NCBI GenBank assembly: GCA_017539905.1
Contig: JAFYBZ010000022.1
Location: forward strand, 77,191-141,190
Direction: 5' to 3'
Source: Clostridia bacterium
Lineage (GTDB): Bacteria > Bacillota > Clostridia > TANB77 > UBA1234
Length of the DNA stretch: 64,000 nt
This document shows, piece by piece, positions 15,342 through 41,763 of this stretch; position 1 is the first letter of the stretch; each line of letters opens with the position of its first letter. The notes beneath the pieces were generated by a model. It saw only the letters and a program-made list of their open reading frames with translations. It was not told the DNA's origin and did not search any database. The position numbers were made by a program, and so were the translations under genes.

Positions 15342-15379
15342 TTGCTTGTAGTGATTTGAACAAAAGAGGGTGATTATAT

Positions 15380-17665: not shown

Positions 17666-17689
17666 CATATATTCTACAAAAGAGAAAGG

Positions 17690-18391: not shown

Positions 18392-18396
18392 TTCTA

Positions 18397-18484: not shown

Positions 18485-18522
18485 TAAGTTGTGGTATAAT
18501 TGAGGCACGGAGGAAATGAAAG

Positions 18523-21437: not shown

Positions 21438-22163
21438 GTGGAAGTAAATACTAAAGTAATTGACTATGAAGAGCCTAGTTCTTCAGAAATTTTACTTAAG
21501 AAAAGCAAGACTAAAGCACTAAAGGCGTATAATAAATTAGATGACATAGGATATAAAGCAGTAAAAAGAAGTTTTGATATAGCATGGGGATTAGCAGGAT
21601 GTGTTGCATTAGCAGTGATTACACCTGTTGTTAAAATAGCTACAATGGCATCTGGCGATTTTAAGCCTATCTTTTATACTCAAAAAAGAGTTGGAAAAGA
21701 TGGAAAAATCATAAAAATATTTAAATTCCGTAGTATGTGCCCAGATGCAGACATAGTATTGGACCAAATACTTAGAGAAAGCCCAGAACTAGCTAAAGAA
21801 TGGCACGAAAACCAAAAGCTTAAAAATGATCCAAGAATAACAAAGATAGGTAATGTGCTTAGAAAGACTTCAATAGATGAAATACCTCAGTTTTTAAACG
21901 TGTTAAAAGGTGATATGAGCTTGATAGGCCCTAGACCACTAGTAGAAGGAGAGTTAGATGCTCATGGCGGAGATCATAAGAGATATGAGGCTATGAGACC
22001 AGGAATCACAGGCTGGTGGGGCTGCAACGGTAGAAACGATACAACTTATCAAGAAAGACTAAACCTAGAGTATTACTATGTGGATAACGCTTCTGTAGTT
22101 TTGGATGCAAGATGCATATTAAAGACAATTGAGGCAGTAGTAAAGAAGACTGGAGTACAATAA
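21438..22163 (+). CDS. undecaprenyl-phosphate sugar phosphotransferase (bacterial sugar transferase, priming enzyme)
   Basis: KRSFDI..., FKFRSM, DPRITKIGNVLRKTSIDEIPQFLNVLKGDMSLIGPRP. Confidence 0.9.
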   Translation: MEVNTKVIDYEEPSSSEILLKKSKTKALKAYNKLDDIGYKAVKRSFDIAWGLAGCVALAVITPVVKIATMASGDFKPIFYTQKRVGKDGKIIKIFKFRSMCPDADIVLDQILRESPELAKEWHENQKLKNDPRITKIGNVLRKTSIDEIPQFLNVLKGDMSLIGPRPLVEGELDAHGGDHKRYEAMRPGITGWWGCNGRNDTTYQERLNLEYYYVDNASVVLDARCILKTIEAVVKKTGVQ

Positions 22164-22177
22164 ATATAAATAATTTG

Positions 22178-22206
22178 ATGGAGGCAGTACAAGCCTCCAT
22201 TTTTTA
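22178..22206 (+). terminator. rho-independent terminator
   Basis: atggaggc agtacaa gcctccat plus T5. Confidence 0.7.
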
Positions 22207-22251
22207 TGATAAAATGCATTAAAATATTTACATAAAAAGTCTACAAAAAGC

Positions 22252-22280
22252 TTGAAAAGTAAACATAATTATGATAGAAT
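22252..22280 (+). promoter_or_regulatory. sigma-A promoter (paralogous to the one at 21354)
   Basis: TTGAAA, 17 nt, TAGAAT. It shares acaaaaag-cttg-aaaagtaaac with the 21345 region. Confidence 0.55.
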
Positions 22281-22308
22281 GACAAAGCTCATAGGGGGTG
22301 AAATCAAT

Positions 22309-23424
22309 TTGGAAAACAAAGAACCAATAAGAATAGCACAAATAATTGGTAAATGGCTTGGCGGTGGCGTTGAAGCAGTAGTTATGAACTATTATCGCCA
22401 TATAGATAGAGAAAAGATCCAATTTGATTTTATCTGCGATAGTGATTCAACAAATATACCTTATGAAGAAATAGAAAGTTTAGGCGGAAAAGTGATATTA
22501 ATTCCACCTTACCAAAAAGTGTTTGAATATCAAAAAGAACTTCAAAGAGTGCTAAAAGCAGGAAAATACAAAATAGTACATTCACATATAAACACACTTT
22601 CAGTATTTCCATTAAGAGCTGCTAAAAAAGCGGGAGTTCCTGTGAGGATAGCACATAGTCATAGTACAAGTAATAAAAAAGAATGGAAAAAGAATTTGTT
22701 TAAGGCAGTTTTAAAGCCATTTGCAAAAACTTTTGCTACTCACTACTTTGCTTGTACAGAGCATGCTGGTAGATGGCTATTTGGTGATAAGGCATTTGAT
22801 GAAGGCAAAGTATTTGTACTTAACAATGCTATTGAAGTAGAAAAGTATCTATTCAATGAAGAAATTCGTAAAGAAAAAAGAGCAGAGATAGGACTTAAAG
22901 ATGTCGACATAGTTATAGGACATATTGGTAGATTTGTAGAACAAAAGAATCATAGATTTTTGATAGACGTATTTGATGCTTTATATAAAGAAAATAATAA
23001 TTACAAGCTAATCTTAATTGGTCAAGGTCCATTGATGGATGAAATGAAAGCAAAAACGAAAGCTTTTAATATAGAAAATGCAGTCTTCTTTTTAGGTCAA
23101 AAAGAGGATGCGCATAAATACTATAATGCATTTGATATATTCTTGTTTCCAAGTTTATATGAAGGGCTAGGAATGGTTGCAGTTGAAGCTCAATATAATG
23201 GACTTCCATGTGTGGCTTCTAACGAAGTGCCTGAGATTGCAAAAATAACAGATACATTTAAAACAATAGCTTTGCAAAGCGATGTTGAAACATGGAAAAA
23301 TGAGATAAAGCAAAGTGTTAAAGAAAAGATAGATAGAAATAACATAGAAGTCATAGATGATAAATATGATATTACAAAACAATCATACAAATTAGAAGAA
23401 CAATATATAGTATTTACATTTTAA
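22309..23424 (+). CDS. glycosyltransferase family 1 (GT4-type)
   Basis: TTG start after AGGGGG RBS; track starts 22252 and 22279 fall inside the promoter. IRIAQIIGKWLGGGVEAVVMNYYRHID and the EGLGMVAVEAQ signature. Confidence 0.85.
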   Translation: MENKEPIRIAQIIGKWLGGGVEAVVMNYYRHIDREKIQFDFICDSDSTNIPYEEIESLGGKVILIPPYQKVFEYQKELQRVLKAGKYKIVHSHINTLSVFPLRAAKKAGVPVRIAHSHSTSNKKEWKKNLFKAVLKPFAKTFATHYFACTEHAGRWLFGDKAFDEGKVFVLNNAIEVEKYLFNEEIRKEKRAEIGLKDVDIVIGHIGRFVEQKNHRFLIDVFDALYKENNNYKLILIGQGPLMDEMKAKTKAFNIENAVFFLGQKEDAHKYYNAFDIFLFPSLYEGLGMVAVEAQYNGLPCVASNEVPEIAKITDTFKTIALQSDVETWKNEIKQSVKEKIDRNNIEVIDDKYDITKQSYKLEEQYIVFTF

Positions 23425-23441
23425 AAATTAGGAGATATTAA

Positions 23442-24692
23442 ATGGAAAAAACAGAAAAGAAATATAACTTTCATTTTTATATCTTAATATTAACATTAGT
23501 ATTTAACTTTTGGTTTCCAAAAGCAGGCATTAAGCTTGCTGGTATCCCATTAACTGTTGGAAACGTTTTTTTGGCTTTTCTATTTATTGTATGGATTTTT
23601 AAAAAGCTATCTAGTAAATCATTAAAAGGAACTAAAGCGGGATTAATACTACTAATCTTTATTGCTTATTGCATAATTAAATTTTTAATTATAGGAAATT
23701 TACTAGAAAACATTGGTTTCATAATTCCTTTAATTATATATCCTTTAATTTTTTATATAGTTTATGATTGTATTGATAGTCACGATAAAATGGAAGCAGT
23801 ACTAAAAACTATTAGAATAGGTTTTTATATTATTACAATATATTCTATAATTCAATATATCTTTGGTATTACTAATACTGATATTCCTGGCTTGACTGTT
23901 AATTACTCTGATTATGTTGAATATGGTGATAGATGGTATTTGACTAAATCAAATGGTGTTACTTTTGAGAATGGTAAAATTGTAAGTACTTATCAAAACG
24001 GAAATTTATTTGGAATAAATATGCTATTGTTTTATCCATTAGTATATTTTTTCTATAAAAAGAATAATGATAACAAGAGACTATTAATATCATTTATATT
24101 ATTTGCTTTGTGTATTTTACTTTCTTTATCGAGAACGGCTTGGCTAGGATTGGTATTATTTATCTTACTTGGTGTATTAATGTTTAAAGACAATACTAAA
24201 AAATCTATTTTAATTAAAATAAACTTAATTGCATTGATTACTTGTGCAGTTTTAGCTGCTCTATTCTTTATTCCATCCGTTTCAAATCGACTATTTAATA
24301 CTTCACTATCTGGATGGATTTCAATGAGTGGAAGAACAGAAGGACTTTTAAACGTAATTAAATCATTAGTATCATCAGATAGTATTTTGGCTTGGTTAAT
24401 TGGCCCAGAGGGCATATCCAATTTTAATGGACTAGCATATGAGATGGGGCCATTATCAATTTTTGTGCAAATTGGAATTATTGGATTAGTTTTGTTTTAT
24501 TACATGATTATTAATTGCATTAATAAAATGAATAAAAGCAGTATTTTTCAGTATGCGATAAAATGCTCGCTTACAATGTGGTGCATATATGGTTGTATTG
24601 AATGCGGATTGTGGTTACCACCAACTGCATTAAACTTGTTTTTTGTATTAGCATTAGGTTATGTATATAAATATAAGGAAGTTGAAGAATAA
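23442..24692 (+). CDS. O-antigen polymerase/ligase-family membrane protein (Wzy-like)
   Basis: About 10 or more TM segments. LSLSRTAWLGLVLFILLG resembles the Wzy_C/O-antigen ligase motif. Confidence 0.75.
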   Translation: MEKTEKKYNFHFYILILTLVFNFWFPKAGIKLAGIPLTVGNVFLAFLFIVWIFKKLSSKSLKGTKAGLILLIFIAYCIIKFLIIGNLLENIGFIIPLIIYPLIFYIVYDCIDSHDKMEAVLKTIRIGFYIITIYSIIQYIFGITNTDIPGLTVNYSDYVEYGDRWYLTKSNGVTFENGKIVSTYQNGNLFGINMLLFYPLVYFFYKKNNDNKRLLISFILFALCILLSLSRTAWLGLVLFILLGVLMFKDNTKKSILIKINLIALITCAVLAALFFIPSVSNRLFNTSLSGWISMSGRTEGLLNVIKSLVSSDSILAWLIGPEGISNFNGLAYEMGPLSIFVQIGIIGLVLFYYMIINCINKMNKSSIFQYAIKCSLTMWCIYGCIECGLWLPPTALNLFFVLALGYVYKYKEVEE

Positions 24693-25903
24693 TGAGTTTA
24701 GCTATTATAACTGGAGGCTTTTTGCCAGTGCCTGCCTCAAAAGGAGGCGCTGTTGAAAACCTTATAGAGAACTTTATAAATATGAATGAAATCAAAAATG
24801 ATATAAAATTGACAGTTTTTTCTACTTATGATGTTAATGCTGAGAGGATTTCAAAAAATTATAAATATACAAAATGCATTTTTTATAAGGTTAATCCTAT
24901 ATGTAAGGTTTTGGATAGCATGATTTTTTTCTTTGCTAAAAACATTTTAAGAAAAAAGAATTGTCATAGTTATAGATTTATTATGCAAAGATTAGACTTT
25001 TTAAATAAAGTAAGTAGAAATCTTAAAAATTATGATTATGATAAAGTATTGTTAGAAAATCATCCTACTTTGTATTTGGCTCTTAAATGGAGAAAGAATT
25101 ATATAAAATATGATGGAAGGTATTATTATCATTGTCATAATGAATTTCCGGGCACATATGGATGTAAAAATATTATAGATAAAACTAAGAAATTTATATC
25201 AGTTAGCGAATATAGACAAAACAATATTAAGCAATATTTGAATAACCAATGTGATTATATTGTGGTTAAAAATGGTATCGATACTTCTAAATTTACTAAA
25301 GATTTGTCAAAAGAAAGAAATATTGAACTTAGAAAAAAGTATAATATAAGTATTGGTGAAAAAATCATTATTTTTGTTGGAAGATTGATAGAAGGTAAAG
25401 GAGCACATATTCTTTTAGAGTCATTAGAATATGTTAAATCAAATGATTATAAAGTTTTAATTGTGGGTTCTGCACTTAACGCACATAATGTAATGACTTC
25501 GTATGAAGAAAAAATATTAAAATTAGCTGAAAAGTATAAAGATAAAGTAAGATTTACCGGATTTGTAAATTATGATGATTTGTATGAAATGTACAAATTA
25601 GCTTATTTAGCTGTGTTACCTTCATTTCTAGGAGATTCAGCACCATTAACAGTTATTGAATCTATTATTTGCAATGTGCCATTAATAACAACAAATGATG
25701 GAGGAATCCCTGAATATGTAAACAAAGATTGTGCGATTATAATTGATACAAATACTGAATTGAAAAAAGAAATTGGTGAATCAATAGATTTTTTAGTTAA
25801 TAACAAATCTGTTGTAAATAAAATGTCATTAGCTACTCAAGTATTTGCAAAAGAATATACAATTGACAATTATTATAAAGAGTTTATTAATAGTATTAAA
25901 TAA
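24692..25903 (+). CDS. glycosyltransferase family 1
   Basis: TAATG overlap with the previous gene. GGFLPVPASKGGAVENL, FVGRLIEGKG, DSAPLTVIESI. Confidence 0.85.
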   Translation: MSLAIITGGFLPVPASKGGAVENLIENFINMNEIKNDIKLTVFSTYDVNAERISKNYKYTKCIFYKVNPICKVLDSMIFFFAKNILRKKNCHSYRFIMQRLDFLNKVSRNLKNYDYDKVLLENHPTLYLALKWRKNYIKYDGRYYYHCHNEFPGTYGCKNIIDKTKKFISVSEYRQNNIKQYLNNQCDYIVVKNGIDTSKFTKDLSKERNIELRKKYNISIGEKIIIFVGRLIEGKGAHILLESLEYVKSNDYKVLIVGSALNAHNVMTSYEEKILKLAEKYKDKVRFTGFVNYDDLYEMYKLAYLAVLPSFLGDSAPLTVIESIICNVPLITTNDGGIPEYVNKDCAIIIDTNTELKKEIGESIDFLVNNKSVVNKMSLATQVFAKEYTIDNYYKEFINSIK

Positions 25904-25915
25904 AAGGACTGTAAT

Positions 25916-26917
25916 ATGAAACAGAATAGTATTCTAATATCAGTGATTATTCCCGTTTATAATGTTGAAAAATATTTAAATGAATGTATCGATTCGGTTA
26001 TTAATAGTACTTATAAAGATTTAGAAATTATTTTAGTTGATGATGGTTCATCTGATAATTGTCCACAAATTTGTGATAAATATGCTTGTATGGACAATAG
26101 AATAAAAGTAATTCATAAGGAAAATGAAGGATTAAGTTCTGCTAGAAATGAGGGAATTAATATTGCAAATGGCGATTATATTTCTTTCATTGATTCGGAT
26201 GATTATATTTCTACTAATTTGTACGAAATAGCTGTTGATATTATTAATGAGCAGAACTGTGATATATTTTCGTTTGGATATTATCTAAAATACGGAAACA
26301 AGAATAAATTTAAACTTAAACCTAATACTTTTTTAGTATTAAAACCATATGAGGCTATAGAAAAATTAAATTTATTTGATTATATGGGAGTTTCTTCTTG
26401 GAATAAAATTTTTAAAAAATCATTATTTAGTAATATTAGGTTTCCAGTTGGAGCCTTGTCTGAGGATAACTTTACAATTTATAAATTATTTGATAATGCA
26501 AATAGTATTATTTATGATTCGATTCCATTATATTATTATAGGCAAAGAAAAAATAGTATTACTACAAAAACATCATTTGTAAATGATTTTCCAATAAGAG
26601 CTGATTTCGAAATGCTTTCTTTTGTAGAAGAGAATTACCCTCAAATAATTCTAAGTGCAAAATCAAGATTTGTGTTTGATTCGATTGGCGTTTATAATTG
26701 TTATTTGACTAATACAACTAGTTTGAAAGACTACAAGAATATAATATTTGATAGCATTATGATATATTATAAAGATTTAATAAAATATGTAGAATTACCA
26801 ATTTCGAGAAGAATACAATTGTTTATATTTAAAAATTTTAATTTATTATATAATTTTATTATAATACTCTATAGAAAAATCAAATTACTAAGAATTATTA
26901 AAAACGATATTTATTAG
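25916..26917 (+). CDS. glycosyltransferase family 2
   Basis: ISVIIPVYNVEKYLNECIDSV...LEIILVDDGSSDN...FIDSDD. Confidence 0.9.
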   Translation: MKQNSILISVIIPVYNVEKYLNECIDSVINSTYKDLEIILVDDGSSDNCPQICDKYACMDNRIKVIHKENEGLSSARNEGINIANGDYISFIDSDDYISTNLYEIAVDIINEQNCDIFSFGYYLKYGNKNKFKLKPNTFLVLKPYEAIEKLNLFDYMGVSSWNKIFKKSLFSNIRFPVGALSEDNFTIYKLFDNANSIIYDSIPLYYYRQRKNSITTKTSFVNDFPIRADFEMLSFVEENYPQIILSAKSRFVFDSIGVYNCYLTNTTSLKDYKNIIFDSIMIYYKDLIKYVELPISRRIQLFIFKNFNLLYNFIIILYRKIKLLRIIKNDIY

Positions 26918-26928
26918 GTAGGTGAATT

Positions 26929-27900
26929 ATGAATAAAAATGTATTATTTGATACATCATCTGGGTCATTAAATATGGGCGATTTTATTATAGTTAGATCT
27001 GTTGAAAACGAGTTAAACAATATACTAAATAATGGATTTTTAGTAAAGTTTCCTACTCATACCCCAGTTTGTCACTTTTATCAGTGTGTTAAAAGAAATG
27101 GCGCTATAAAATATTTTGATAAAGCTAAATATAAATTTATTGCTGGTACCAATCTTCTAAATTATAATATGTTATTACCTTGGAATAATTGGAATATTAA
27201 TATATTTAATAAAAGACCATATGTAAATTCTATTCTTGTTGGAGCTGGAATGAATCCAAATAGTAAACATATTAATTTATATACCAAATTTCTATTTAAG
27301 CATGTTTTGTCAAAAGATTATATTCATTCATGTAGAGATCAAAGAACTACGGATTTTTTAACTAATTTAGGTTTTAAAGCTATAAATACCGGATGCGCAA
27401 CTATGTGGTGCTTGACGGATAGCTTTTGTAAGAATATACCTATACATAAAGCTTCAAGTGTAGTCTTTACACTAACAGATTATGATAAGGACAATGATAA
27501 GGATCAAAAATTAATTAATACTTTAATTAAAAATTATGAAAATGTGTATTTTTGGATACAAGGTTCTAATGATTATGATTATTTGAAATCATTTAATAAC
27601 ATTAATAATATCAATATTATTTCTTCTCAATTAGATTATTATGATAAGATTTTAAATGAAACGGAAATTGATTATGTAGGAACAAGATTACATGCTGGAA
27701 TATTTGCACTACAGCATAAAAAAAGGACAATAATAATTGCTGTTGATAATAGGACTAAAGATATTAAACAAAGTTACAATATTATTTCTTTGGATAGAGA
27801 TGAAATTGAAAAATTGGATGAGTTAATAAATACAGATTTTGAAACAAATATTCACATTAATTTTGATTTAATAAATCAATGGAAAATGCAATTTAAGTAA
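26929..27900 (+). CDS. polysaccharide pyruvyl transferase family protein
   Basis: GSLNMGDFII near the N-terminus and GTRLHAGIFALQHKKRTIIIAVDNR near the C-terminus resemble WcaK/ExoV/CsaB-type enzymes. Confidence 0.65.
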   Translation: MNKNVLFDTSSGSLNMGDFIIVRSVENELNNILNNGFLVKFPTHTPVCHFYQCVKRNGAIKYFDKAKYKFIAGTNLLNYNMLLPWNNWNINIFNKRPYVNSILVGAGMNPNSKHINLYTKFLFKHVLSKDYIHSCRDQRTTDFLTNLGFKAINTGCATMWCLTDSFCKNIPIHKASSVVFTLTDYDKDNDKDQKLINTLIKNYENVYFWIQGSNDYDYLKSFNNINNINIISSQLDYYDKILNETEIDYVGTRLHAGIFALQHKKRTIIIAVDNRTKDIKQSYNIISLDRDEIEKLDELINTDFETNIHINFDLINQWKMQFK

Positions 27901-27956
27901 TATAATAAATAATTGATATTATAATTATTTAACAATGATTGGGGGATTCTGTTTAA

Positions 27957-28670
27957 ATGAATTATTTAAAGAATTTGTTGCTATGGTTAAAGTTTGGTCC
28001 GAAATCAAATAGTAAAAGTTTTGTCAAGTATTTAAAAAATAAAGGAATTAAAATTGGTAATAACTGTGAATTTAATTCTCCGTGGACTACTATTGTTGAT
28101 TATAGTAAACCTTGGTTATTACAGATTGGAAATAATGTTGTTTTTTCATCTAAAATAACTATTTTGACTCATGATGGATCGTGGAGGGTTTTACATAATT
28201 TATATGGTGATGTTTTAGGTTCAACTGGTAAAGTAATAATCGGAAATAACGTATTTGTAGGTATGGGGAGTACTATTTTAAAAAATGTAACAATTGGAGA
28301 TAATGTAATTATTGGGGCAGAGAGTCTTGTTACGAGAGATTTGGATAGTAATTTTGTTTACGCAGGCTCTCCTGCAAAAAAAATTATGTCAATCGAAGAT
28401 TTTTATAATAAGAGACAAAACCTGCAAAAGAGTGAATTGCTAAATAACCTAAATTTGTATATACTAGCAAATAAAAAGAAACCTTCTGAAGTATTGTTTA
28501 AAGAGTATTTTTTTCAATTTATAGATAGAAATCAAGACCTAAACAAATATTATAAAGAATACTTACAATATGGAGATAATTATTTGCTGTCTTTAAATAG
28601 ATTTAAAGAAACAAAAAATAGTTATAGTAGCTTTAATGGATTATTGAATGAGGTTATGAGGGATGAATAA
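27957..28670 (+). CDS. hexapeptide-repeat (LbH) acetyltransferase
   Basis: IGNNVFVGMGSTILKNVTIGDNVIIGAESLVTRDL. Confidence 0.8.
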   Translation: MNYLKNLLLWLKFGPKSNSKSFVKYLKNKGIKIGNNCEFNSPWTTIVDYSKPWLLQIGNNVVFSSKITILTHDGSWRVLHNLYGDVLGSTGKVIIGNNVFVGMGSTILKNVTIGDNVIIGAESLVTRDLDSNFVYAGSPAKKIMSIEDFYNKRQNLQKSELLNNLNLYILANKKKPSEVLFKEYFFQFIDRNQDLNKYYKEYLQYGDNYLLSLNRFKETKNSYSSFNGLLNEVMRDE

Positions 28671-30126
28671 CAAAAAAATTTTTATAGATTCTGGAATATA
28701 CTTTTTGGGGTCAATCTTAGCTGCTGTTTTAGGTTTTGTTGTATCTTTAGTATACTCATACTATTTTGATCCAAGTGATTATGGAAACCATTCTCTTGTT
28801 TCAAGCACATATATGCTGTTATCTCAATTTTTTGGAATTTGGTTAAGTACGGGTTTATTGAGATTTTATGAAAAATATAAAAATATTAATAGATCTGATG
28901 AACTGTTAACATCTATATATGGCATCCAATTTATTATATCTTTAGTATTTGTAATTATTTTTAATATTGGCAATTTTTTTGTTTCAAATAATCATCTATT
29001 ACAAATAATTTTAGTTATTTATTCATTAGTTTTTTATTTTGAATATAACATTCTTATTACCAATACAACTTTAAGATGTACCAAAAAAGTAAAAAAGTAT
29101 AATATAAATATTGTTTTAAATAACTTTCTAAAGGTATTTGTTGTACTATTTATTATTTTTGTTTTAAATTTCAAGTCAATAGTTGCTATTTCACTTAGCA
29201 TATTATTATCGGAACTAATACAGTATTTATTGTTTCTTTTTTCATATAAACTATATAAGTATTTTAACTTTAAACTTTTTAGATTTGAGATTGTTAAAGA
29301 ATTATTTATGTATGGTTTTCCTTTGATTGGCACTACAATTACAGGATGGATTTTAAATGTATCAGATCGTTATATTATTAGATTACTACGTGATTCAAAA
29401 GAAGTTGGTCTGTATTCATATTCTTATCTTTTAGGAAATAATTTATTTTGGCTTTTAGCAAATTTCATAATGTTAGGTGCTTATCCCAACTTTGTTGAAT
29501 GCTTTGAAAAGGGCAATATAACGACTTTAAAAGAACTTTTTAAAAAATATATCAATTTGTATTTACTAATAATAATTCCTTGTTGTTTTGGAGTTATAGG
29601 TGTTTCAAAATTGTTTTTCTCGATTTTTACTGCATCACAATATCATGAAGGTTATATTGTTTTCATTATCACGGGATGTGGTATAAGTTTTTTGGGACTT
29701 TGCCAATTTTTAAATAAAGTATTTGAATTATATAAAAATACAAAAACTATTTTTATTCTTAATGTATGTACCTCTATTTTTAATATATTATTTAATTTTA
29801 TATTTATTAATTATTGGGGGTATATTGGCGGTGCCATTTCAACACTTATGTCATATGTTTTATATTTTATAATAGCATTAGTTATTTCTAAGAAGTATAT
29901 AGAATTAGATTGGGATTGTATTAGTATTTTTAAATTTTTATTGTCCGGATTGTTAATGCTTTCTTTCATTACATTGTTTTTACATTTTATTAATTTAAAT
30001 AACGATATATTGCAATTGATAATTTGCTTAATTATTGGAATAGTATCTTATTTTACCTTTTTATTGCTTTTTAAAGGGATTAAAAAAGAAAGTATTACTG
30101 AAATAATAAAATTAGTTAGACATTAA
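28663..30126 (+). CDS. oligosaccharide flippase (Wzx/MOP family)
   Basis: 487 aa and about 12-14 TM segments. Overlaps the previous stop. Position in the locus fits. Confidence 0.8.
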   Translation: MNNKKIFIDSGIYFLGSILAAVLGFVVSLVYSYYFDPSDYGNHSLVSSTYMLLSQFFGIWLSTGLLRFYEKYKNINRSDELLTSIYGIQFIISLVFVIIFNIGNFFVSNNHLLQIILVIYSLVFYFEYNILITNTTLRCTKKVKKYNINIVLNNFLKVFVVLFIIFVLNFKSIVAISLSILLSELIQYLLFLFSYKLYKYFNFKLFRFEIVKELFMYGFPLIGTTITGWILNVSDRYIIRLLRDSKEVGLYSYSYLLGNNLFWLLANFIMLGAYPNFVECFEKGNITTLKELFKKYINLYLLIIIPCCFGVIGVSKLFFSIFTASQYHEGYIVFIITGCGISFLGLCQFLNKVFELYKNTKTIFILNVCTSIFNILFNFIFINYWGYIGGAISTLMSYVLYFIIALVISKKYIELDWDCISIFKFLLSGLLMLSFITLFLHFINLNNDILQLIICLIIGIVSYFTFLLLFKGIKKESITEIIKLVRH

Positions 30127-30221
30127 TTAATAAGTATAATCGAGTATTTTTATTATTATTCTGACATTTTTCACATTAGGGTATCTATTTGTTCAACAAA
30201 TAAAATTGAATATTGAAATTG

Positions 30222-30259
30222 AGCCATTTCTGAGCTTAAAGCTGTGGAATGGCTTTTTA
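30222..30259 (+). terminator. terminator after the flippase gene
   Basis: agccatt ... aatggct hairpin (inner agctt/aagct) plus T5. Confidence 0.6.
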
Positions 30260-30261: not shown

Positions 30262-30290
30262 TTGACATGAATTTAGCTATTTGATATATT
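30262..30290 (+). promoter_or_regulatory. sigma-A promoter of the HEPN cassette
   Basis: TTGACA, 17 nt, TATATT. Confidence 0.55.
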
Positions 30291-30318
30291 ACTAAAAAGA
30301 TAATTTAAGAGGGATTTA

Positions 30319-31353
30319 ATGAATTTAGAGTATATAATTGTAAAGAAAAAAGACAAAAATATTGAAAATAAAGATCAATTTATTTCTTTGCTTAATGAAA
30401 ATTCTTATTTTAAAATAACTCCTAAAGCAAAGTATTTTTATTATAATGAGCTTAGATTTAATTCATCTATTACTGAATCTTCAACAAAAAATAATGATAT
30501 TATGTTGATCATTAATATTCGATGCGACGAAAATACTTCTATTAAGGATTTTGAAGCGTTTGATAAAGAGCTTTTGGATTATTTAAGTAATAAAATGGGT
30601 TATACTTCTATTAATAGATTATGTGATGAAATCTCTACATATTATTCTCAGTTATCATATCCTCGTGTATCAAAAATAGAATATCTACTTAGAAAGGTTA
30701 TTTATGTCTTTTTAACAAATAATCTTGGCGTTAAATGGACTGAACCAATTCCTGATGTTGTTAAAAACTCCATTAATCAAACAAAAAATTATAGTAAAAA
30801 TATGAATAGCAAATATGAATTTGGTTATTTGTCATATGCTGATTTTAATGATTTGATTGTCTTACTTTTCTTAAAATATCCTAATAATATAATTGATAAC
30901 AATGAACTGGTTGAATTGATTAAAAATGCTAATGATAAGGAACTTAAGGATATTATTAAGAAATATGAGCATAAGTCAAATTGGGATCGATATTTTTCTA
31001 AGTCTTATAAAAATGTTGATTTAGAAGATAGCTTGAAATCATTCTATAAATACAGAAATAGAATAGCTCATAATAGACTAATTAGAAGTAATGATTATGA
31101 TGAATTTGTTAGATTGTATCGCCATATTGAATATAATCTGAATGATATATTAAATAGTATTGATAAGATTAAAATACAAAAGAAAGATATTCATTTAATA
31201 AGTAAGAGATTGAACGATTATATTGTTAACAGCAGTTCAAATATTCAGGCATTTATGGAACATATTAGGGAAAATATTATGCCACAAGTTAATAGTTTAT
31301 CTGAAATATTAAATAAGCAAGCTATTGTTAATATAATGCACTTAATGAGTTGA
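30319..31353 (+). CDS. Swt1-like HEPN domain protein with an unknown N-terminal domain (344 aa)
   Basis: SKIEYLLRKVIYVFLTNNLGVKW ... SFYKYRNRIAHNRLI (R-x4-H). Confidence 0.65.
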   Translation: MNLEYIIVKKKDKNIENKDQFISLLNENSYFKITPKAKYFYYNELRFNSSITESSTKNNDIMLIINIRCDENTSIKDFEAFDKELLDYLSNKMGYTSINRLCDEISTYYSQLSYPRVSKIEYLLRKVIYVFLTNNLGVKWTEPIPDVVKNSINQTKNYSKNMNSKYEFGYLSYADFNDLIVLLFLKYPNNIIDNNELVELIKNANDKELKDIIKKYEHKSNWDRYFSKSYKNVDLEDSLKSFYKYRNRIAHNRLIRSNDYDEFVRLYRHIEYNLNDILNSIDKIKIQKKDIHLISKRLNDYIVNSSSNIQAFMEHIRENIMPQVNSLSEILNKQAIVNIMHLMS

Positions 31354-31499
31354 TGGATTCTCATGAGTTTAAGAATAAGATGGAACGAGTTAGGGATAGT
31401 ATAGAGGATTTGAAGGGGAAGGTGGATGGAGTGAATCTTAGAAGTGTGGGAATAGGGAGTTATGAGGAGTTAATAAGTAACGAAGGAGACAATGTTTAA
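31353..31499 (+). CDS. small ORF (48 aa), translationally coupled candidate
   Basis: ATG overlaps the upstream stop (TGATG). Purine-rich. MDSHEFKNKMERVRDSIEDLKGKVDGVNLRSVGIGSYEELISNEGDNV. Below the ORF-track size cut-off. Confidence 0.35.
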   Translation: MDSHEFKNKMERVRDSIEDLKGKVDGVNLRSVGIGSYEELISNEGDNV

Positions 31500-31518
31500 T
31501 AGATTTGGAGGTTTTAAT

Positions 31519-31680
31519 ATGAATGATAGATTAGCATATGATTTACTTGTAGATTATTTGAAATATATAATTGATCAAGGAATAAATAAAGATATCCGTT
31601 TTAATGAAGCTCAGAAAGAGTTATTAAAAAATGGGATTGATTTGTATTGCGAAGAGTTGAAGAGGATGAATGGGAAATAG
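31519..31680 (+). CDS. small ORF (53 aa)
   Basis: GGAGG RBS 8 nt upstream of ATG 31519. MNDRLAYDLLVDYLKYIIDQG... Confidence 0.45.
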   Translation: MNDRLAYDLLVDYLKYIIDQGINKDIRFNEAQKELLKNGIDLYCEELKRMNGK

Positions 31681-31718
31681 AGATAGGCAAGTTTTTTATA
31701 ATAAAGGATGTTGATATT

Positions 31719-32627
31719 ATGGAATTTGAATTAGATTTACTTAGAAATTCTTATGATTACTTAAAAGAATCATTAGAATATTATAGCAAAATTGGTTATG
31801 ATGAATCTCATGATCCAGAAAGAGAAAATATGAATTTAAAAATCAAATGGAAAACTACTTTTTTGTTGTTGGTTCAAGCAATTGAATTACTTTTAAAAGA
31901 AAAACTTTCAAGAATCAGTCCAATTTTAATATATGACAACATTGATAATATTTCTATAAATAATCCTAAGACAATATCTTACAAAAATTCAATTAATAGA
32001 TTAAAATATTTGAAACCCAAATTATTGAAAGATGAGGATGCAAAATTTTTGATTAAATGTGGAGACATAAGAAATGATTTTGTGCATTATAAGGTAAAAC
32101 TTAATTCAATTGATATTAAAAAGAAGTACTGTAAATTGTTTGAATTATATGTCAATTTACATTCAAAATTTTTTAATAATAAGTACAAGAACTATAAGTA
32201 CAGAGGACAAATTTTGCAAATTCTTGAATTTGCAAAAGGATTTGAGATATTTAGAGGACAAGAATATTCGAAAAAAGGACTAAATAGAGTTAAAGCTGAT
32301 TTAAAAGAAGGGCAAGAAATGTCATTTATGTATAATGACAATGAATTTTTTGAAAGAATTAGATATGGAAATGAAAAGTATTTGTTAAATAAGCTAGGAA
32401 TGAATGATTTTTATTATAATAAAACATATAAGTATTGTGGCGATTGTTTGGCAACAATTGGCGAATATCATATGGTAGAGTGTGATTGGGAACTATGTCC
32501 AAAGTGTGGAGATCAACTTATAACATGTGATTGTTTCAAAGGGTACTGTAGTATTGAGTATACAAAAGAGAATTCAGAAAATAAATCGCTAACATTAACA
32601 AATGATTTTGCTATTAATAAAGAATGA
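31719..32627 (+). CDS. HEPN domain protein with C-terminal zinc-ribbon-like Cys cluster (302 aa)
   Basis: ATG 31719 after AAAGGA. AIELLLKEKL ... CGDIRNDFVHYKV (R-x4-H). The tail is CGDC...ECDWELCPKCGDQLITCDC. Confidence 0.6.
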   Translation: MEFELDLLRNSYDYLKESLEYYSKIGYDESHDPERENMNLKIKWKTTFLLLVQAIELLLKEKLSRISPILIYDNIDNISINNPKTISYKNSINRLKYLKPKLLKDEDAKFLIKCGDIRNDFVHYKVKLNSIDIKKKYCKLFELYVNLHSKFFNNKYKNYKYRGQILQILEFAKGFEIFRGQEYSKKGLNRVKADLKEGQEMSFMYNDNEFFERIRYGNEKYLLNKLGMNDFYYNKTYKYCGDCLATIGEYHMVECDWELCPKCGDQLITCDCFKGYCSIEYTKENSENKSLTLTNDFAINKE

Positions 32628-33044
32628 TGATACAAGGAGACGTCCATTGTTTGTGTCAAATAGGGACAACTCTTTTTGACGTTACATAAATAATAAAGCC
32701 ATTTCTTTGCTTTGAGGCAAGAGGTGGCTTTTATTTGACTTTACTATTTTTCTTGTAGCATTACGGCGAAAATAATTGAAGGATTGAAATTTATGGATTT
32801 ACCACAGCTATTAATGGATGGTTCTTTAGATGAGCTTAAGTATGATTATGAGAAATGAAGAATAAGATAGTAGATACGAGGTGTTCAAAATGAAGAAAGG
32901 ATAAATTGTTACTGGTATTATTGCTTCTTTAGCTTTGGGGTATTCTTAGTTTGAGAATTCTAAATTTTTAGTGAAATTAATCAATCTATGATATAATAAT
33001 ACACATAATGTACTAACACTTATTCTTTAAAGTGAGGGATTGAT

Positions 33045-33740
33045 GTGGAATTAAGAAAAGTTGAAAGTAAAGAAGAAATTCAAGAATTATATAAACAATG
33101 TAGATTTATTGATGATGCTCTTGATACTGATGTTTATGCTTTATATGACTCAGATGATCCAAAGACTGTTTTTACTTTAAAAAGAATTGGTGATTCTATG
33201 CAACCTATATCAACAATAAGACAATTAGACTTTGAAACAAAACCAGAAGCACAAGGACATGGCTATGCAACCCAAGGCTTTGAAAAAATGATTGTAGTAA
33301 TCACATCTAGAGCAGATATAAGTGAAGTTTATATTGATGCCGCAAATCCTCTTTCTGCAAAGATAGCAGAAAGATTTGGCATTGAAAGTGCTGAAGCTGG
33401 AAGATATGTTATTAAAAATCCTAATTTTGATATTAATTATGAAATCGTATGCAATATGATTAAAAGTGGTGTTGATGAAAAAGAAATAAGAGCCTTTGCT
33501 AGTTCAAAAGGTTTATCATCATCATTAATTGATAAGTGGATAGCAATTCAAAAAGAATTGCCGCAAATAGAAAGTCAAGGCGATGAAATTCCAATTTTTA
33601 CTCCTCCAAGTCCAGAACAACAATCTAAAACTGTTTTAGAAGAAAGTCAAATCACATTGGCTAAATTAAAATCAAATATACAGGCAAACAGAGGAAAAAC
33701 TAATGAAATAGGGACACCCCCTTTTGACTTTAATAAATAG
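33045..33740 (+). CDS. GNAT-like N-acetyltransferase domain protein with C-terminal extension
   Basis: GTG start after GAGGG. AQGHGYATQGFEKMI resembles GNAT motif A, then ANPLSAKIAERFG. Confidence 0.45.
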   Translation: MELRKVESKEEIQELYKQCRFIDDALDTDVYALYDSDDPKTVFTLKRIGDSMQPISTIRQLDFETKPEAQGHGYATQGFEKMIVVITSRADISEVYIDAANPLSAKIAERFGIESAEAGRYVIKNPNFDINYEIVCNMIKSGVDEKEIRAFASSKGLSSSLIDKWIAIQKELPQIESQGDEIPIFTPPSPEQQSKTVLEESQITLAKLKSNIQANRGKTNEIGTPPFDFNK

Positions 33741-37180: not shown

Positions 37181-37948
37181 ATGGAAGAAGAAATTGACCT
37201 AATTGATCTTTTATTAACTTTCTGGAAAAGAAAGTTTTGGATAATTCTTCTTGTTGCTTTTGGTGCTTTCATTGGTATCATCTACACAAGATTTATTATT
37301 GTACCTAAATATTCTTCATCAGTTACATTAATTCTTGCCAAGGCTAACAACAATGCAACTACAATTACTCAAGCTTTGACTTATGATGGTGAAGAGGCTA
37401 TTACACAATCAGATATTACTCTTAACCAAAAATTAATTTCTACATACGCAGAGATTATGAAGAGTAGAAGAGTATGTGAAGAAGTTAAAGCCAACTTAAA
37501 TCTTGAAATGAATTATGAATTAGTAAGGGATGCAATTGATGTTGCATCTGTTAAAGATACAGATGTTATTAAAGTAACTGTTACTACTAAGGATGCAAGT
37601 CTTTCTAAAAAGATTGCTACTGAATTAGTAAATTCATTTACTAACGAGGTTGATCGTATCTACAACATTCAAAATGTTAAGATATTAGATGTTGCTCAAG
37701 TAGATGATAAGCCAGTTAACATCAGCTATCCTAAGAATATAATTATCTTTGCATTGATTGGTGCTGTTATCGCATTTGGTATTATTTTCTTGCAATACTA
37801 TTTTGATAACACAATTAAGAACCAAGAAACAATTACTAAGACAATTAATCTTCCAGTGCTTGCAACAATTCCTAAGATAGATCAAAACAATGTAAATGAC
37901 GGTTTGTACTCTAACGAGAAAAGAGGTGGCACAAAGAATGGAAAATAA
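37181..37948 (+). CDS. polysaccharide chain-length determinant / tyrosine-kinase modulator (Wzz, CpsC/YwqC-like)
   Basis: EEEIDLIDLLLTFWKRKFWIILLV, plus a second TM segment near the C-terminus. Confidence 0.85.
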   Translation: MEEEIDLIDLLLTFWKRKFWIILLVAFGAFIGIIYTRFIIVPKYSSSVTLILAKANNNATTITQALTYDGEEAITQSDITLNQKLISTYAEIMKSRRVCEEVKANLNLEMNYELVRDAIDVASVKDTDVIKVTVTTKDASLSKKIATELVNSFTNEVDRIYNIQNVKILDVAQVDDKPVNISYPKNIIIFALIGAVIAFGIIFLQYYFDNTIKNQETITKTINLPVLATIPKIDQNNVNDGLYSNEKRGGTKNGK

Positions 37949-38669
37949 TGAATACAAAAATAATGTTATATCTTTTTTAAATCCAAAATCTATTGTGTCA
38001 GAAAGCTTTAGAGCTCTTCGTACAAACTTAGAATTTTCTATGTCACAAGACAACAAAAAGGTTATACTATTTACTAGCTCACATGTTAGTGAAGGAAAAT
38101 CTTCTTGTGCGGCTAACTTAGCTGCTGTTTTTGCTATGCAAGGTAAAAAGACTTTGCTAATTGATGCCGATATGAGAAGAGGTGTTCAACACAAGAATTT
38201 CGGAGTTGAAAAACAAAATGGTCTTTCTAACTTTTTATCTAACGTTGGATTTAAGACTCAAGGATTTTTCAAACCAACAGATATTAGCAACTTAGTTGTT
38301 ATTACTTGCGGTACAACTCCACCAAATCCAGCTGAACTTTTATCATCACATAGATTCAAAAAATTATTAGAAGACTACAAGTCATTCTATGATATTATAA
38401 TTATTGATGGTGCTCCTGTTCTTCCAGTAACTGACTCAGTTATCGTTGCACCATTAGTTGATAAAATTGTTATCGTTGCAGCTTATGGTGAGACACATAA
38501 AGACGAATTAAAACTTGTTAAGACAACATTAGAAAACAGTGGTGGAGACATCGCTGGTCTTGTTCTAAATAAAGTTGATTCTCGTACTTCTGGTTACAGC
38601 AAGTATGGAAAATATAGAAAATACAACAGCAATTATTATGCTTATTATTCAAATGAAGAAAAGAAATAA
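37938..38669 (+). CDS. CpsD/CapB-family protein tyrosine kinase
   Basis: ATG 37938 overlaps the upstream stop. SESFRALRTNLEF, Walker A SSHVSEGKSS, and a C-terminal Tyr cluster YSKYGKYRKYNSNYYAYY. Confidence 0.9.
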   Translation: MENNEYKNNVISFLNPKSIVSESFRALRTNLEFSMSQDNKKVILFTSSHVSEGKSSCAANLAAVFAMQGKKTLLIDADMRRGVQHKNFGVEKQNGLSNFLSNVGFKTQGFFKPTDISNLVVITCGTTPPNPAELLSSHRFKKLLEDYKSFYDIIIIDGAPVLPVTDSVIVAPLVDKIVIVAAYGETHKDELKLVKTTLENSGGDIAGLVLNKVDSRTSGYSKYGKYRKYNSNYYAYYSNEEKK

Positions 38670-38684
38670 TGGAGGTTATTTAAA

Positions 38685-39491
38685 ATGGTAGATATTCATT
38701 GTCATGCTCTTTATGATGTGGACGATGGTTCGAAGTCACTTGATCAAACTGTTAAGATGATTAAGATGGCACGTGAAGCCGGATATCATTCTTTGTGTTT
38801 TACACCACATTATATGGAAGATGGCTACAAAACTTCGAGAGGTATTTTGGAGTCAAAATTACAGATTATTAAAGAAGCTTTGATCCTTGAAAATATTAAT
38901 GATGTTAATTTGTATTTAGGTGAAGAAGTTTATATATTCCCTGAATTGGCCGAGAGACTTGATGAAGTTGTATTATTAAATGATAGTAAATATATTTTGT
39001 TTGAGCTTCCTTTAAATGAGAGAGTCGACTATGTTGATGAAGTAATTTATAAATTACAAGCTCATGGTAAGATTCCTGTATTAGCTCATCCAGAAAGATA
39101 TTTACAATCAAAAGAAAAATTTAGTTTTGTTGAGAACTTAGCTAAAAAAGGCGTGTTGATGCAAATTAATTTAAATTCATTATCTGGTCACTATGGTAAT
39201 GATGCAAAGAAGATTGCTCTTAAAATGCTAAAGAATGACATGGTACAATTTATTGCTACTGATGCTCATTCACAAGCAGGATACTCAATGGCTAAAGAGA
39301 GTATAAATATTTTAAGACAACATGTATCAACAGAAAAAGCTTTTGAATTATTAGAAGAAAATCCTGGATTTGCTTTGGCAAATCTTGAAGTTAAACCTTG
39401 GAACTATACAATTTCAGAAAAGTCTAAAAGAGCAGGAAATTCATTCTTATCTTTTATGAAGACAGTTCCATTTCTACAAAAAATTAAATAG
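38685..39491 (+). CDS. PHP-family protein-tyrosine phosphatase (CpsB/YwqE-like)
   Basis: MVDIHCHALYDVDDGS..., LAHPERY, ATDAHS. Confidence 0.88.
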   Translation: MVDIHCHALYDVDDGSKSLDQTVKMIKMAREAGYHSLCFTPHYMEDGYKTSRGILESKLQIIKEALILENINDVNLYLGEEVYIFPELAERLDEVVLLNDSKYILFELPLNERVDYVDEVIYKLQAHGKIPVLAHPERYLQSKEKFSFVENLAKKGVLMQINLNSLSGHYGNDAKKIALKMLKNDMVQFIATDAHSQAGYSMAKESINILRQHVSTEKAFELLEENPGFALANLEVKPWNYTISEKSKRAGNSFLSFMKTVPFLQKIK

Positions 39492-39502
39492 AGGAGATAT
39501 TG

Positions 39503-40369
39503 ATGAAGAGAATACTTAGTTTAATACTTGTGGTTATTCTCGTGATTCCAAGTTTCTCTTATGCAGCTACTAAAGAAGATGTAATCAACGCAATAAATGC
39601 TACTTATCAAGTTGGTGACTCTTCTTTTAGATTGCCTCAAAAATACATAAATAGAGGTGTAGCATACTTAAATAGTCATCCTTTGACATCTGAGCAATAT
39701 AGCAGAATTTTAGGATGCATTGGTGCAGCTGTAAATTATGCAAGAGAAATTGGACACGTTAGATACAAAGAATATACTAAAGAACAAATTAATAAAGGTT
39801 TGCAATATGTATATGCTGCTTGTGCTGCTGCAGAAGTTAATTTAAATGAAGAGGTCAAAAAGGAAGAGGAGACTGCTCCTGAAAATACTTCTTCTTCAAG
39901 TGCTATTGCTGTTGACATAAATGCTAATACTGAGCAAACTGAAAAAATTAATAAGACTGGTTTACATAATTCCAATGACAAGTTGAATGACAGTGGTGAC
40001 ATTGTTGAAGTAAATGAAGGTACAAGTGGAGAAACCTCTATGTCAGGCGAAATACAGTCAGGAGAAGCTTTTGAAGACCCTTTTGATATTGATGCTTACG
40101 TAGAAAAGTTAGTGTACACAGAGGATGATGTAGATAAAGAAATCAATCAAAAATTATTTATCATTTACTTTTTGGCATTTACCATTTTAATAGTAAATAT
40201 TTTGCTAATTCGCTTGATATTTAAGAAAAAATGGAATAAAATACTCAAAGTCACTTTGATAGTATTGTTTGTAATTATTTCGCTAATTTTAATAGCGGGA
40301 ATTTGTATTTCTTTATACTATATTGAAGAACTTAAACTTATTTACAAATTATATTATCTATTATATTAG
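39503..40369 (+). CDS. hypothetical secreted protein with C-terminal TM anchors
   Basis: Signal peptide MKRILSLILVVILVIPSFSYA. Hydrophobic C-terminal third. Confidence 0.6.
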   Translation: MKRILSLILVVILVIPSFSYAATKEDVINAINATYQVGDSSFRLPQKYINRGVAYLNSHPLTSEQYSRILGCIGAAVNYAREIGHVRYKEYTKEQINKGLQYVYAACAAAEVNLNEEVKKEEETAPENTSSSSAIAVDINANTEQTEKINKTGLHNSNDKLNDSGDIVEVNEGTSGETSMSGEIQSGEAFEDPFDIDAYVEKLVYTEDDVDKEINQKLFIIYFLAFTILIVNILLIRLIFKKKWNKILKVTLIVLFVIISLILIAGICISLYYIEELKLIYKLYYLLY

Positions 40370-40380
40370 GAGGAATTATT

Positions 40381-41763
40381 ATGAAGAAGTTTTTAGTTGC
40401 TTTGTTTATTATCGCTACTGTATGCTCATTCTCTCTAGCTTTTGCTGGTAGATTTTCAGATGTTCCAGATAACATGTGGGCTGCTGAGCAAATCGGAAGA
40501 TGGGCTGACGAAGGTGTTGTTATGGGTTACGAAGATGGCACATATAGACCTTCAAACTTTATTACTAGAGCAGAATTTGCTACTATGATAGTAAAGATGT
40601 TTGAGCCAATTAAGGTTGCTGATTTAGCTAAATACAAAGATGTTAGCAAAGATGATTGGTTCTATGAGAATTTAGCTAAAGCAGTTGCTATGGGATCAAT
40701 CGAAGAAGATACATCTAGTTCAATGAGACCAAACGCATATGTTACAAGACAAGAAGCAGTTGTTATTTTAAATAGTGTATTAAAGTATGCACCTGCATAT
40801 AAAGATGCTATCAAAGATTTCGGTGATTATGATGAAATCGCTGACTATGCTGAAGAAGATGTAGAAGTATTTGCTGAAAGAGATTATGTTGTTGGTTATC
40901 CAGATGGAACATTCAGACCAGCTGACACAATCACAAGAGCAGAAGCTGCTACAATTTTAGATAGAATTTTCAAATTAATTATCAATGTAAAAGGCGAATT
41001 TGATTGCACAGGTATCGGTGTTAACAATGTAATTATTGTTAAAGCTGATAACGTTACATTAAAGAATGCTGATCAAGTTGGAAGAATTATTTTCTTAAAC
41101 GATACAGTTAAGAAGAATTGTAAAGGTATCACAGAAGATGCTAGAAAGAATTCAATTGTTATCAACCCAGGTTCTGGTTCTGATAGCAAGACAACAAGCA
41201 GAACATCATCTTCAGGCGGAAGTTCATCTGGTTCTTCAACATCTAAGATTGCTACATTTACAGTTAAAAAGACTGGAAACAAATTTGCTTTAACAAGAAA
41301 CGGTGTTGCTGCTCAAAATGGCAGAAGATTAAAGATTGTTGTTGACGGTAAAACAGTTGTTAATGAAATCATTAACGAAAAAACTGATTTATTAGGCTTA
41401 TTAGAAGATGTAGCTAATGCTATGAACAATGTTGATGGTACAGCAAGAATAATCAATACACTTGATGAGAAGAGATTCGGTTTCGAAGCTGACGTTGAAG
41501 ATTGGGGTACAGCTACAATCGCTCAAATGGCAATCGACGGAACACTTAAAGTAAAAGATGATGAAGCATTAGCTGGAAACGATGCTAAATCTTACTTAAA
41601 AGCTGATCAAGGAAATGCTCACAACTATGACATCGGTGATGTATATGATGCATTAACAGAAGAAGCTCAAGACACAGTATTCGATACAGCTATGAAAGTA
41701 TTAAAAGACGAAGGCTTAACAAACGCTCAAATCTTAACAGCATTAAACAATTTACCTAAATAA
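40381..41763 (+). CDS. S-layer homology (SLH) domain protein
   Basis: Signal peptide, then three SLH repeats (GYEDGTYRPSNFITRAEFATMI; VTRQEAVVIL; GYPDGTFRPADTITRAEAATIL). Confidence 0.85.
   Translation: MKKFLVALFIIATVCSFSLAFAGRFSDVPDNMWAAEQIGRWADEGVVMGYEDGTYRPSNFITRAEFATMIVKMFEPIKVADLAKYKDVSKDDWFYENLAKAVAMGSIEEDTSSSMRPNAYVTRQEAVVILNSVLKYAPAYKDAIKDFGDYDEIADYAEEDVEVFAERDYVVGYPDGTFRPADTITRAEAATILDRIFKLIINVKGEFDCTGIGVNNVIIVKADNVTLKNADQVGRIIFLNDTVKKNCKGITEDARKNSIVINPGSGSDSKTTSRTSSSGGSSSGSSTSKIATFTVKKTGNKFALTRNGVAAQNGRRLKIVVDGKTVVNEIINEKTDLLGLLEDVANAMNNVDGTARIINTLDEKRFGFEADVEDWGTATIAQMAIDGTLKVKDDEALAGNDAKSYLKADQGNAHNYDIGDVYDALTEEAQDTVFDTAMKVLKDEGLTNAQILTALNNLPK

Follow-up and report, generated by a model that had tools for sequence, protein, structure and literature searches.

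The subject of this report is a small cassette at positions 30262-32627 of a 64-kb stretch of DNA (hereafter the window, meaning the whole stretch that was analysed) from contig JAFYBZ010000022.1 of a Clostridia bacterium. The cassette consists of four open reading frames (ORFs), of which the first and the last code for HEPN-type proteins, here called P1 and P4, and the two in between, sA and sB, are tiny. We consider it fairly probable that two independent and self-sufficient HEPN ribonuclease (RNase) genes, adjacent fortuitously, form a small defence islet here, and that the cassette is not a four-gene system. Of the interpretation put forward in an earlier note on this DNA, the assignment of both large proteins to the HEPN type, including the catalytic motif, stood up, but the proposal of one undescribed four-gene system did not: the genes never co-occur in 31 independent loci, an observation that the note itself had named as counter-evidence.

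Independent occurrence of the P1 and P4 families

The independence of the two genes is deduced from this lack of co-occurrence of P1 and P4. For the comparison, hidden Markov models (HMMs) of both families were run against every ORF of all fetched loci. None of the 19 independent P4-family loci contained a P1-family gene, none of the 12 independent P1-family loci contained a P4-family gene, and the only loci holding both families belonged to the window's own clone.

The P4-family gene has no conserved partner, and its neighbours differed in every independent context examined. These contexts included a serine recombinase with MutH/Dcm and DUF4238, a tyrosine integrase with a kinase-like gene, AAA_15/AAA_21 ATPases with methylases, an HD/HATPase protein with SMC-like proteins, DUF6602, PIN_12 and M78+DUF4411, a NERD/zinc-ribbon protein, and an Eco57I-type methylase. 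On the E. faecium plasmid pVEF3, the P4 homologue lies 27 nucleotides (nt) after a reverse transcriptase of the retron Ec67 type. As for P1, one homologue was found solo on an element carrying an integrase, HTH_17 and Mob_Pre, and others are located in viral contigs, two of them directly downstream of a prophage CI repressor (Phage_CI_repr plus Phage_CI_C; L024 4299-6215 and L029 4429-6464), which is the slot typical of lysogen-expressed prophage defence genes. On plasmid pNsp_c of Nostoc sp. ATCC 53789 (L118 4992-6221), a P1 homologue annotated by NCBI as a HEPN domain-containing protein is inserted between brxC and pglX of a BREX-1 system, and such embedding is the kind of evidence used to nominate defence candidates. 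The BREX-1 embedding and the adjacency to CI repressors strengthen the case for the P1 family as a defence family worth naming. For both families, the surroundings are those of defence genes and mobile elements, in agreement with the defence flavour that the earlier note had ascribed to the cassette. When 50,697 phage genomes were searched by tblastn with P1 and P4, there was no match at E <= 1e-3.

P4 and its relationship to PDC-S64 and HEC-08

P4 (302 amino acids (aa), 31719-32627, + strand) contains the sequences AIELLLKEKL, CGDIRNDFVHYKV and CGDC...CPKC...CDC. At its N-terminus it has a HEPN domain of the DUF3644 type, in the middle an alpha/beta region and at its C-terminus a zinc module. 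In a comparison to the PADLOC profiles, it matched PDC-S64 with E = 1.1e-18 (65.3 bits, residues 3-207), whereby the matching region spans the HEPN domain and the middle part of the protein and leaves the zinc tail outside; the match to the PADLOC DUF3644 model was weak (E = 0.0027). The family comprises about 30 cluster-level relatives with 28-65% identity, and PDC-S64 was matched by 30/30, DUF3644 by 21/30 and the HEC-08 model by 4/30 of them. The R-x4-H motif of P4, R118-N-D-F-V-H123, does not vary among the 30 family members aligned, nor do E56 and K60 in the family alignment, and the C-terminus, for which no Pfam match was found, displays eight invariant ligands (C240, C243, H251, C255, C260, C263, C270 and C272). 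In the AlphaFold2 model of P4, with a pLDDT (the predicted score in the local distance difference test) of 89.2 and a predicted template modelling (TM) score of 0.83, the N-terminal approximately 150 residues matched HEPN proteins in all of the 14 top-ranking hits of a Foldseek search against the PDB. These hits included the HepT toxins 7bxo, 7ae6, 5yep and 6m6u as well as AF_0298, YutE and Csm6, with probabilities of 0.96-1.00, target TM-scores mostly of 0.55-0.74 and weak E-values (0.015-0.11). At the level of the predicted model, P4 adopts a HEPN fold, and the claim that it is a HEPN protein with an R-x4-H motif and a Cys-rich tail was borne out by the invariant R118 and H123, the eight ligands and these structure matches. 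A structural search of BFVD with P4 was uninformative.

Judged by these profile matches, P4 is a member of the single-gene candidate family PDC-S64, which is a distant sister of the validated system HEC-08. PDC-S64 is one of 145 PDC candidates defined by Payne et al. 2024 (bioRxiv 10.1101/2024.01.29.577857). The occurrence of P4-family genes solo in varied defence neighbourhoods is as would be expected of a single-gene candidate; PDC-S64 was defined by its embedding in other defence systems, whereas P4 is located after a polysaccharide locus. A literature search by name for PDC-S64 and HEPN_Swt1 found no paper. HEC-08 is a single-gene anti-phage defence consisting of a DUF3644 HEPN domain and a C-terminal zinc-finger, in which mutation of the motif histidine, H128 (R-x4-6-H), abolishes defence (bioRxiv 10.1101/2024.01.29.577857). 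For comparison, the HEC-08 sequence of E. coli ECOR52 (WP_001313577.1, 366 aa) was recovered from an E. coli genome. P4 has the same outline, with an N-terminal DUF3644-type HEPN domain followed by a Cys-rich, predicted zinc-binding C-terminus, and an hhalign comparison of the P4 family profile to HEC-08 gave a probability of 84% (E = 7.5e-6) over the HEPN domain only, with the R-x4-H motifs in register. In contrast, the identity between the two proteins is 24% over 98 residues, their zinc regions failed to align, HEC-08 is longer, and P4 did not match the HEC-08 profile at E <= 1. The combination of a HEPN domain (overlapping DUF3644) and a zinc ribbon in restriction-modification neighbourhoods had already been listed by Anantharaman et al. 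2013 (PMC3710099). The statement of the earlier note that no named system was recognisable in the cassette had to be given up for P4 in view of its PDC-S64 match, its HEC-08-like outline and an architecture catalogued in 2013.

P1 and the Swt1-like HEPN proteins

P1 (344 aa, 30319-31353, + strand) contains IEYLLRKVIYVFLTNNLGVKW and YKYRNRIAHNRLI. The impression from a word-indexed protein search that P1 is an orphan turned out to be a sensitivity artefact, as an exhaustive HMMER search gave 839 cluster representatives at E <= 1e-3, 425 of them at E <= 1e-10. Most of these homologues are 370-450 aa long and align to residues 1-300 of P1; several intact ones measure 324-349 aa. The R-x4-H motif R246-N-R-I-A-H251 and residue E121 are invariant in 71 aligned family members, 66 of which match the Pfam family HEPN_Swt1 at E <= 0.01 (best E = 7e-9). 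In scans of individual relatives, two of ten exceeded the HEPN_Swt1 cut-off. These data agree with the claim that the C-terminal part of P1 is a Swt1-like HEPN domain, and on this basis P1 belongs to a large family that, though uncharacterised, is recognisable as HEPN_Swt1. Bacterial HEPN proteins of the Swt1-like/Abi2 clade are predicted to be active RNases and are tied to restriction and defence operons (PMC3710099), and the P1 family resembles this clade (Pfam PF18731) both by its HEPN_Swt1 matches and by its invariant R-x4-H dyad. In addition, 69 of the 71 relatives match the PADLOC profile PDC-M34B, over only about 80 residues within the HEPN domain. The cassette differs from the two-gene candidate PDC-M34 in that the first gene of the latter is absent, there is no upstream partner and P1 itself is unmatched.

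The AlphaFold2 model of P1 (pLDDT 90.1) is laid out as a ferredoxin/ACT-like alpha/beta domain (residues 1-103), a putative Swt1-like HEPN core (about 104-283) and a long C-terminal helix (288-343). In a Foldseek search, the N-terminal domain matched ACT, ribosomal protein S6 and PII-type ferredoxin-like folds; no description of such an N-terminal domain was found in the literature searched. A profile search of PDB sequences with P1 yielded coiled-coil noise and nothing relevant. An hhalign comparison of the P1 and P4 families gave a probability of 0.9%, i.e. no detectable kinship, so that the earlier note's description of the two HEPN proteins as unrelated is fair.

Organisation of the cassette

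The ORF check agreed with the earlier note in finding four ORFs on the same strand with all peptide motifs quoted for them, and the signals described around them were recovered too. A promoter of the sigma-70 type (30262-30290, + strand; TTGACA-17 nt-TATATT with an extended -10 TG) matches the consensus at 11/12 positions, is the top-scoring site of the region and, judged from its sequence and position directly after the terminator of the polysaccharide locus, likely drives the cassette. The gene for sA (48 aa, 31353-31499, + strand) starts at an ATG that overlaps the stop codon of P1 as TGATG, and sB (53 aa, 31519-31680, + strand) is preceded by a GGAGG ribosome-binding site 7 nt upstream. 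By this arrangement, both HEPN genes are probably part of one transcription unit.

The cassette is flanked by two terminator-like hairpins on the + strand with a U-tract each. The first, T1 (30221-30259), follows a gene for a wzx-type flippase, has a 10-bp outer stem and starts with AGCCATTTCT; the second, T2 (32695-32737), closes the cassette and carries the same 10-mer in its 5' arm. Both fold strongly, with -17.8 kcal/mol and z = -4.2 for T1 (30221-30255; none of 200 shuffles as stable) and -19.0 kcal/mol and z = -4.8 for T2 (32695-32731). They were absent from the listing of a consensus terminator scan, probably because their bulged loops of 8 to 11 nt exceed the 3-8-nt limit of the scan. 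The 10-mer occurs exactly twice in the window, once per hairpin, and two or more matches were obtained in 1 of 100 shuffles. The hairpins are indeed look-alikes, and the sequences around T1 and T2 align poorly outside of them. Also the AT-richness of the cassette is real, with a guanine plus cytosine (GC) content of 22-29%, the surrounding DNA having 31-37%, but it is shared by the variable genes of the polysaccharide locus upstream (approximately 23200-30126; 21-29% GC).

Proposed mode of action in comparison to known systems

By analogy with the solo HEPN effectors RAZR, Tha and HepS, we infer that P1 and P4 would each act alone as an effector of the abortive-infection type. In such a mechanism, the HEPN domain would dimerise, creating a composite R-x4-H RNase site whose activity is held back, while the non-HEPN domain, i.e. 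the N-terminal ferredoxin/ACT-like domain of P1 and the C-terminal zinc module of P4, would sense a cue of infection. The released RNase would then cut cellular and phage RNA, so that translation and phage spread stop. RNase activity, sensing by the accessory domains, an abortive-infection outcome and co-transcription of the genes are all proposed here on the strength of these analogies. The two genes may have come together at the recombination-prone 3' end of the variable polysaccharide locus, and sA and sB would probably be translated, lineage-specific additions that neither HEPN family needs.

An analogue of the mechanism proposed for P4 is RAZR (PD-T7-4), in which a zinc-finger sensor and a HEPN domain are combined in one protein that is activated by phage ring proteins and then cleaves RNA non-specifically, leading to abortive infection (PMC13017515). 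RAZR works in the manner proposed for P4 and belongs to a different family: it has an N-terminal Cys4 zinc finger and a DUF4145 HEPN domain, whereas P4 has the reverse order and a DUF3644-type HEPN domain, and the PD-T7-4 models did not match P4 or its relatives. Tha, encoded by S. aureus prophages, is a solo HEPN RNase that is activated by phage structural proteins (PMC11087260). It consists of an uncharacterised N-terminal region and a C-terminal HEPN domain and is accompanied by a small inhibitor, Ith, with a gene of 201 nt (PMC11087260). HepS of Gifsy-1 is likewise a solo prophage HEPN RNase activated by phage structural proteins, and is minimal, with no extra domains (PMC13043305). P1 shares with Tha the order of an N-terminal region and a C-terminal HEPN domain, and Ith provides a precedent for a possible role of sA or sB. 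Some relatives of P1 also occupy prophage accessory slots beside CI repressors; the cassette in the window, in contrast, lies outside any prophage, and no sequence similarity to Tha or HepS was detected with P1 and P4 in the 50,697 phage genomes. P4 resembles HepT of the HEPN-MNT (HepT-MntA) systems at the level of the fold only, and a search of sA, sB, P1 and P4 for a nucleotidyltransferase (MNT) or another known antitoxin domain gave nothing.

Small ORFs between the HEPN genes

Judged from their sequence features, sA and sB are plausibly translated, lineage-specific orphans. Their codon usage is like that of real genes, with scores of 0.33 (sA) and 0.36 (sB) compared to 0.29 for P1 and 0.36 for P4; among spurious ORFs of comparable length, no more than about 4.5% score as high. 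Together they tile almost the entire 365-nt gap between P1 and P4 on the same strand; the ribosome-binding site of sB is canonical and ideally spaced, and sA is placed for translational coupling to P1. An alternative ATG of sB at 31492 would give a protein of 62 aa and an overlap with the end of sA.

These features speak against the idea that sA and sB are not genes and that the stretch between P1 and P4 is filler from two insertions with chance frames in purine-rich, stop-poor DNA, which we regard as the best surviving alternative, possible but rather doubtful. It gains from the lack of homologues, as a fused sA+sB query against 5.8 billion protein clusters matched only the window's own sB, and from the extreme composition of sA, which is purine-rich with 35% G and 4% C. 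Furthermore, the DNA similarity between the window and the closest P4 relative (65% identity) begins at about position 31698, approximately 21 nt before the start codon of P4, which fits an arrival of P4 as a separate unit, and a second promoter-like site at 31542-31571 (10/12 positions) could drive P4 alone.

An RNA element in the small-ORF region was rejected upon negative Rfam, tandem-repeat and folding checks: the region contains no meaningful tandem repeat, Rfam gave nothing at E <= 1, and 31345-31725 does not fold better than shuffled sequences do (z = +0.95). Neither a repeat nor a structured RNA was found adjoining the RNase genes, as would be expected for the RNA antitoxin of a type III (ToxIN-like) toxin-antitoxin system. 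We also considered sA and sB as frameshifted remains of a longer P1 tail, an idea motivated by the combined length of 344 + 48 + 62 = about 454 aa compared to 370-450 aa for most P1 homologues. The tails of the homologues are variable or of low complexity and show no collinear similarity to 31354-31720; because of this, and because several intact P1 relatives are as short as 324-349 aa, the idea was discarded. Nothing resembling sA or sB was found beside P1 or P4 homologues in the fetched loci, and by this comparison the two small ORFs are dispensable for either HEPN family.

Weighing of two independent genes against a coupled system

Several observations weigh against the interpretation of the cassette as two independent HEPN effector genes. 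P1 itself scores 19.5 bits against HEPN_Swt1, below the gathering cut-off of 27.5 bits, the PADLOC scan of P1 gave no match, and in the Foldseek search with the whole P1 model the helical core matched no solved structure, so that its assignment as HEPN rests on sequence profiles and the motif. The co-occurrence sample of 31 loci is modest and many of the contigs are short. In addition, a P4 homologue (54% identity) was found 12 nt downstream of a different HEPN-like protein in two loci (L116 2-1590 and L117 3-1549); this protein is weakly MAE_28990/ApeA-like and carries KFRNDMAH, and adjacent pairs of unlike HEPN proteins may recur. Finally, the tight packing on one strand, the single good promoter, the overlap of stop and start codons and the coding-like character of the small ORFs resemble a true operon, and the genes of the cassette may be functionally coupled.

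One form of such coupling would be an integrated four-gene system in which the HEPN RNases are toxins or effectors and sA and sB are dedicated antitoxins or inhibitors, either Ith-like or of type II. It is favoured by the enclosure of all four ORFs by one strong promoter and flanking terminators, the TGATG overlap of sA with P1, the ideally spaced GGAGG of sB, the gene-like codon usage of both small ORFs and the precedent of Tha, a HEPN defence RNase with a small inhibitor (PMC11087260). We nevertheless regard it as unlikely. The small ORFs have no homologues in the 5.8 billion clusters and are absent beside all 31 independent P1- and P4-family genes, which evidently work without them, P1 and P4 are never found together in these loci, an antitoxin domain of the MNT type or any other known type was not found, and the cassette copies lack the sequence variation from which conservation of the small ORFs could be judged.

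It is similarly improbable that the HEPN genes are selfish addiction or stabilisation modules, or RNases for RNA processing or stress, that hitch-hike with horizontally acquired low-GC polysaccharide genes. The GC content of the cassette equals that of the adjacent polysaccharide genes and the cassette always occurs with exactly that gene set; HEPN domains are known to serve in RNA processing and as parts of toxin-antitoxin systems too (Anantharaman et al. 2013, PMC3710099), and the closest structural matches of P4 are the HepT toxins of HEPN-MNT systems. Against this stand the failure to find a cognate antitoxin family, the recurrence of P1 and P4 homologues among defence genes of the restriction-modification, BREX, retron and ATPase types as well as in accessory slots of prophages, and the demonstrated anti-phage phenotype of HEC-08 with its P4-like architecture. 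We would give little credence to a co-regulated dual-RNase module with sA and sB as newly evolved Ith-like inhibitors of one or both RNases, together with the related notion that viral standalone zinc modules are decoys blocking PDC-S64-type defences; if true, two sensors with different triggers would share one release mechanism.

With two independent and fortuitously adjacent HEPN genes as the preferred reading, the cassette represents a routine case of defence genes accumulating at a surface-polysaccharide locus that is variable, here in an uncultured Clostridia lineage of the gut type. It offers a compact, apparently intact pair of candidate solo HEPN effectors that can be cloned directly, and what is left of its novelty concerns the orphan small ORFs and the observations on the zinc module of P4.

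The zinc module of P4 as a mobile domain

The zinc module is encoded by positions 32310-32540 of the window (P4 residues approximately 198-274) and follows the pattern RIxYG...CxDC...H...CDxExCPxCGxQLxSCxC. In viral contigs, 231 stretches encoding a relative of P4 were found, 80 of which were kept as loci. A full-length P4 relative was present in only 2 of these 80. Twelve of the others were inspected, and nine of them contained a standalone zinc module in an ORF of 89-132 aa, often with an extra N-terminal CxxC knuckle (e.g. L037 4887-5159, L054 4920-5234, L063 5013-5315, L067 4917-5195, L082 4833-5135 and L095 4980-5285). In L058 (4548-5294), a genuine TIR domain (AbTIR, E = 4e-9) is joined to the module. 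The occurrence of the module in fusion with HEPN, in fusion with TIR and on its own fits a role as sensor or adaptor, and the standalone versions of phages might be decoys or anti-defence proteins. The module thereby provides a lead on how infection is sensed by RNases that consist of a single protein, and on possible countermeasures of phages.

Distribution of the cassette and surrounding genes

Ten contigs, represented by seven places, carry P1, and in all of them it is located behind the same polysaccharide gene set. A single mismatch is the only difference between the window and the contigs bearing the cassette, which was thus found in one clonal lineage only. In one of them (L006 811-2255), which is otherwise identical to the window, the upstream flippase gene is split into ORFs of 108 aa and 272 aa, suggesting a disrupted wzx variant in that sample.

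The gene downstream of the cassette (33045-33740) codes for a 231-aa protein without a GNAT or any other Pfam match at E <= 0.001, so that its designation as GNAT in the earlier note was not upheld. As to the earlier note's idea of an inserted island, for which the two look-alike hairpins would be a duplicated terminator, a cassette-free relative with the same flanks was not found when reference genomes and metagenomes were scanned with this protein, each of which gave one locus, and exact-sequence look-ups of the protein gave no match. The nearest reference genome is a metagenome-assembled genome of an uncultured Clostridia bacterium from a human gut sample, a different species which has only the 231-aa gene in common with the window; the similarity starts at 32987 and amounts to 81% amino-acid identity for the protein. 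The other relative of the 231-aa protein is encoded on a metagenome contig of 1.7 kb.

The first polysaccharide locus of the window (21438-30126) comprises genes for a priming sugar transferase, glycosyltransferases, a pyruvyl transferase, an acetyltransferase and a flippase, and the low GC content of its variable genes relative to the 31-37% of the surrounding DNA suggests their horizontal acquisition. A second locus of the polysaccharide type (37181-41763) encodes Wzz, a CbiA/AAA_31 tyrosine-kinase-like protein and CpsB. Upstream of the first locus, the window contains a gene of the IS200-like Y1 transposase family (12556-13323), a gene for a PLD-family protein (13530-15071), a gene for a 761-aa protein without a Pfam match (15380-17665), and a gene for an unknown 210-aa protein that overlaps a UvrD-like helicase gene (18523-20785). 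These genes at 12556-20785 might be further defence or mobile genes.

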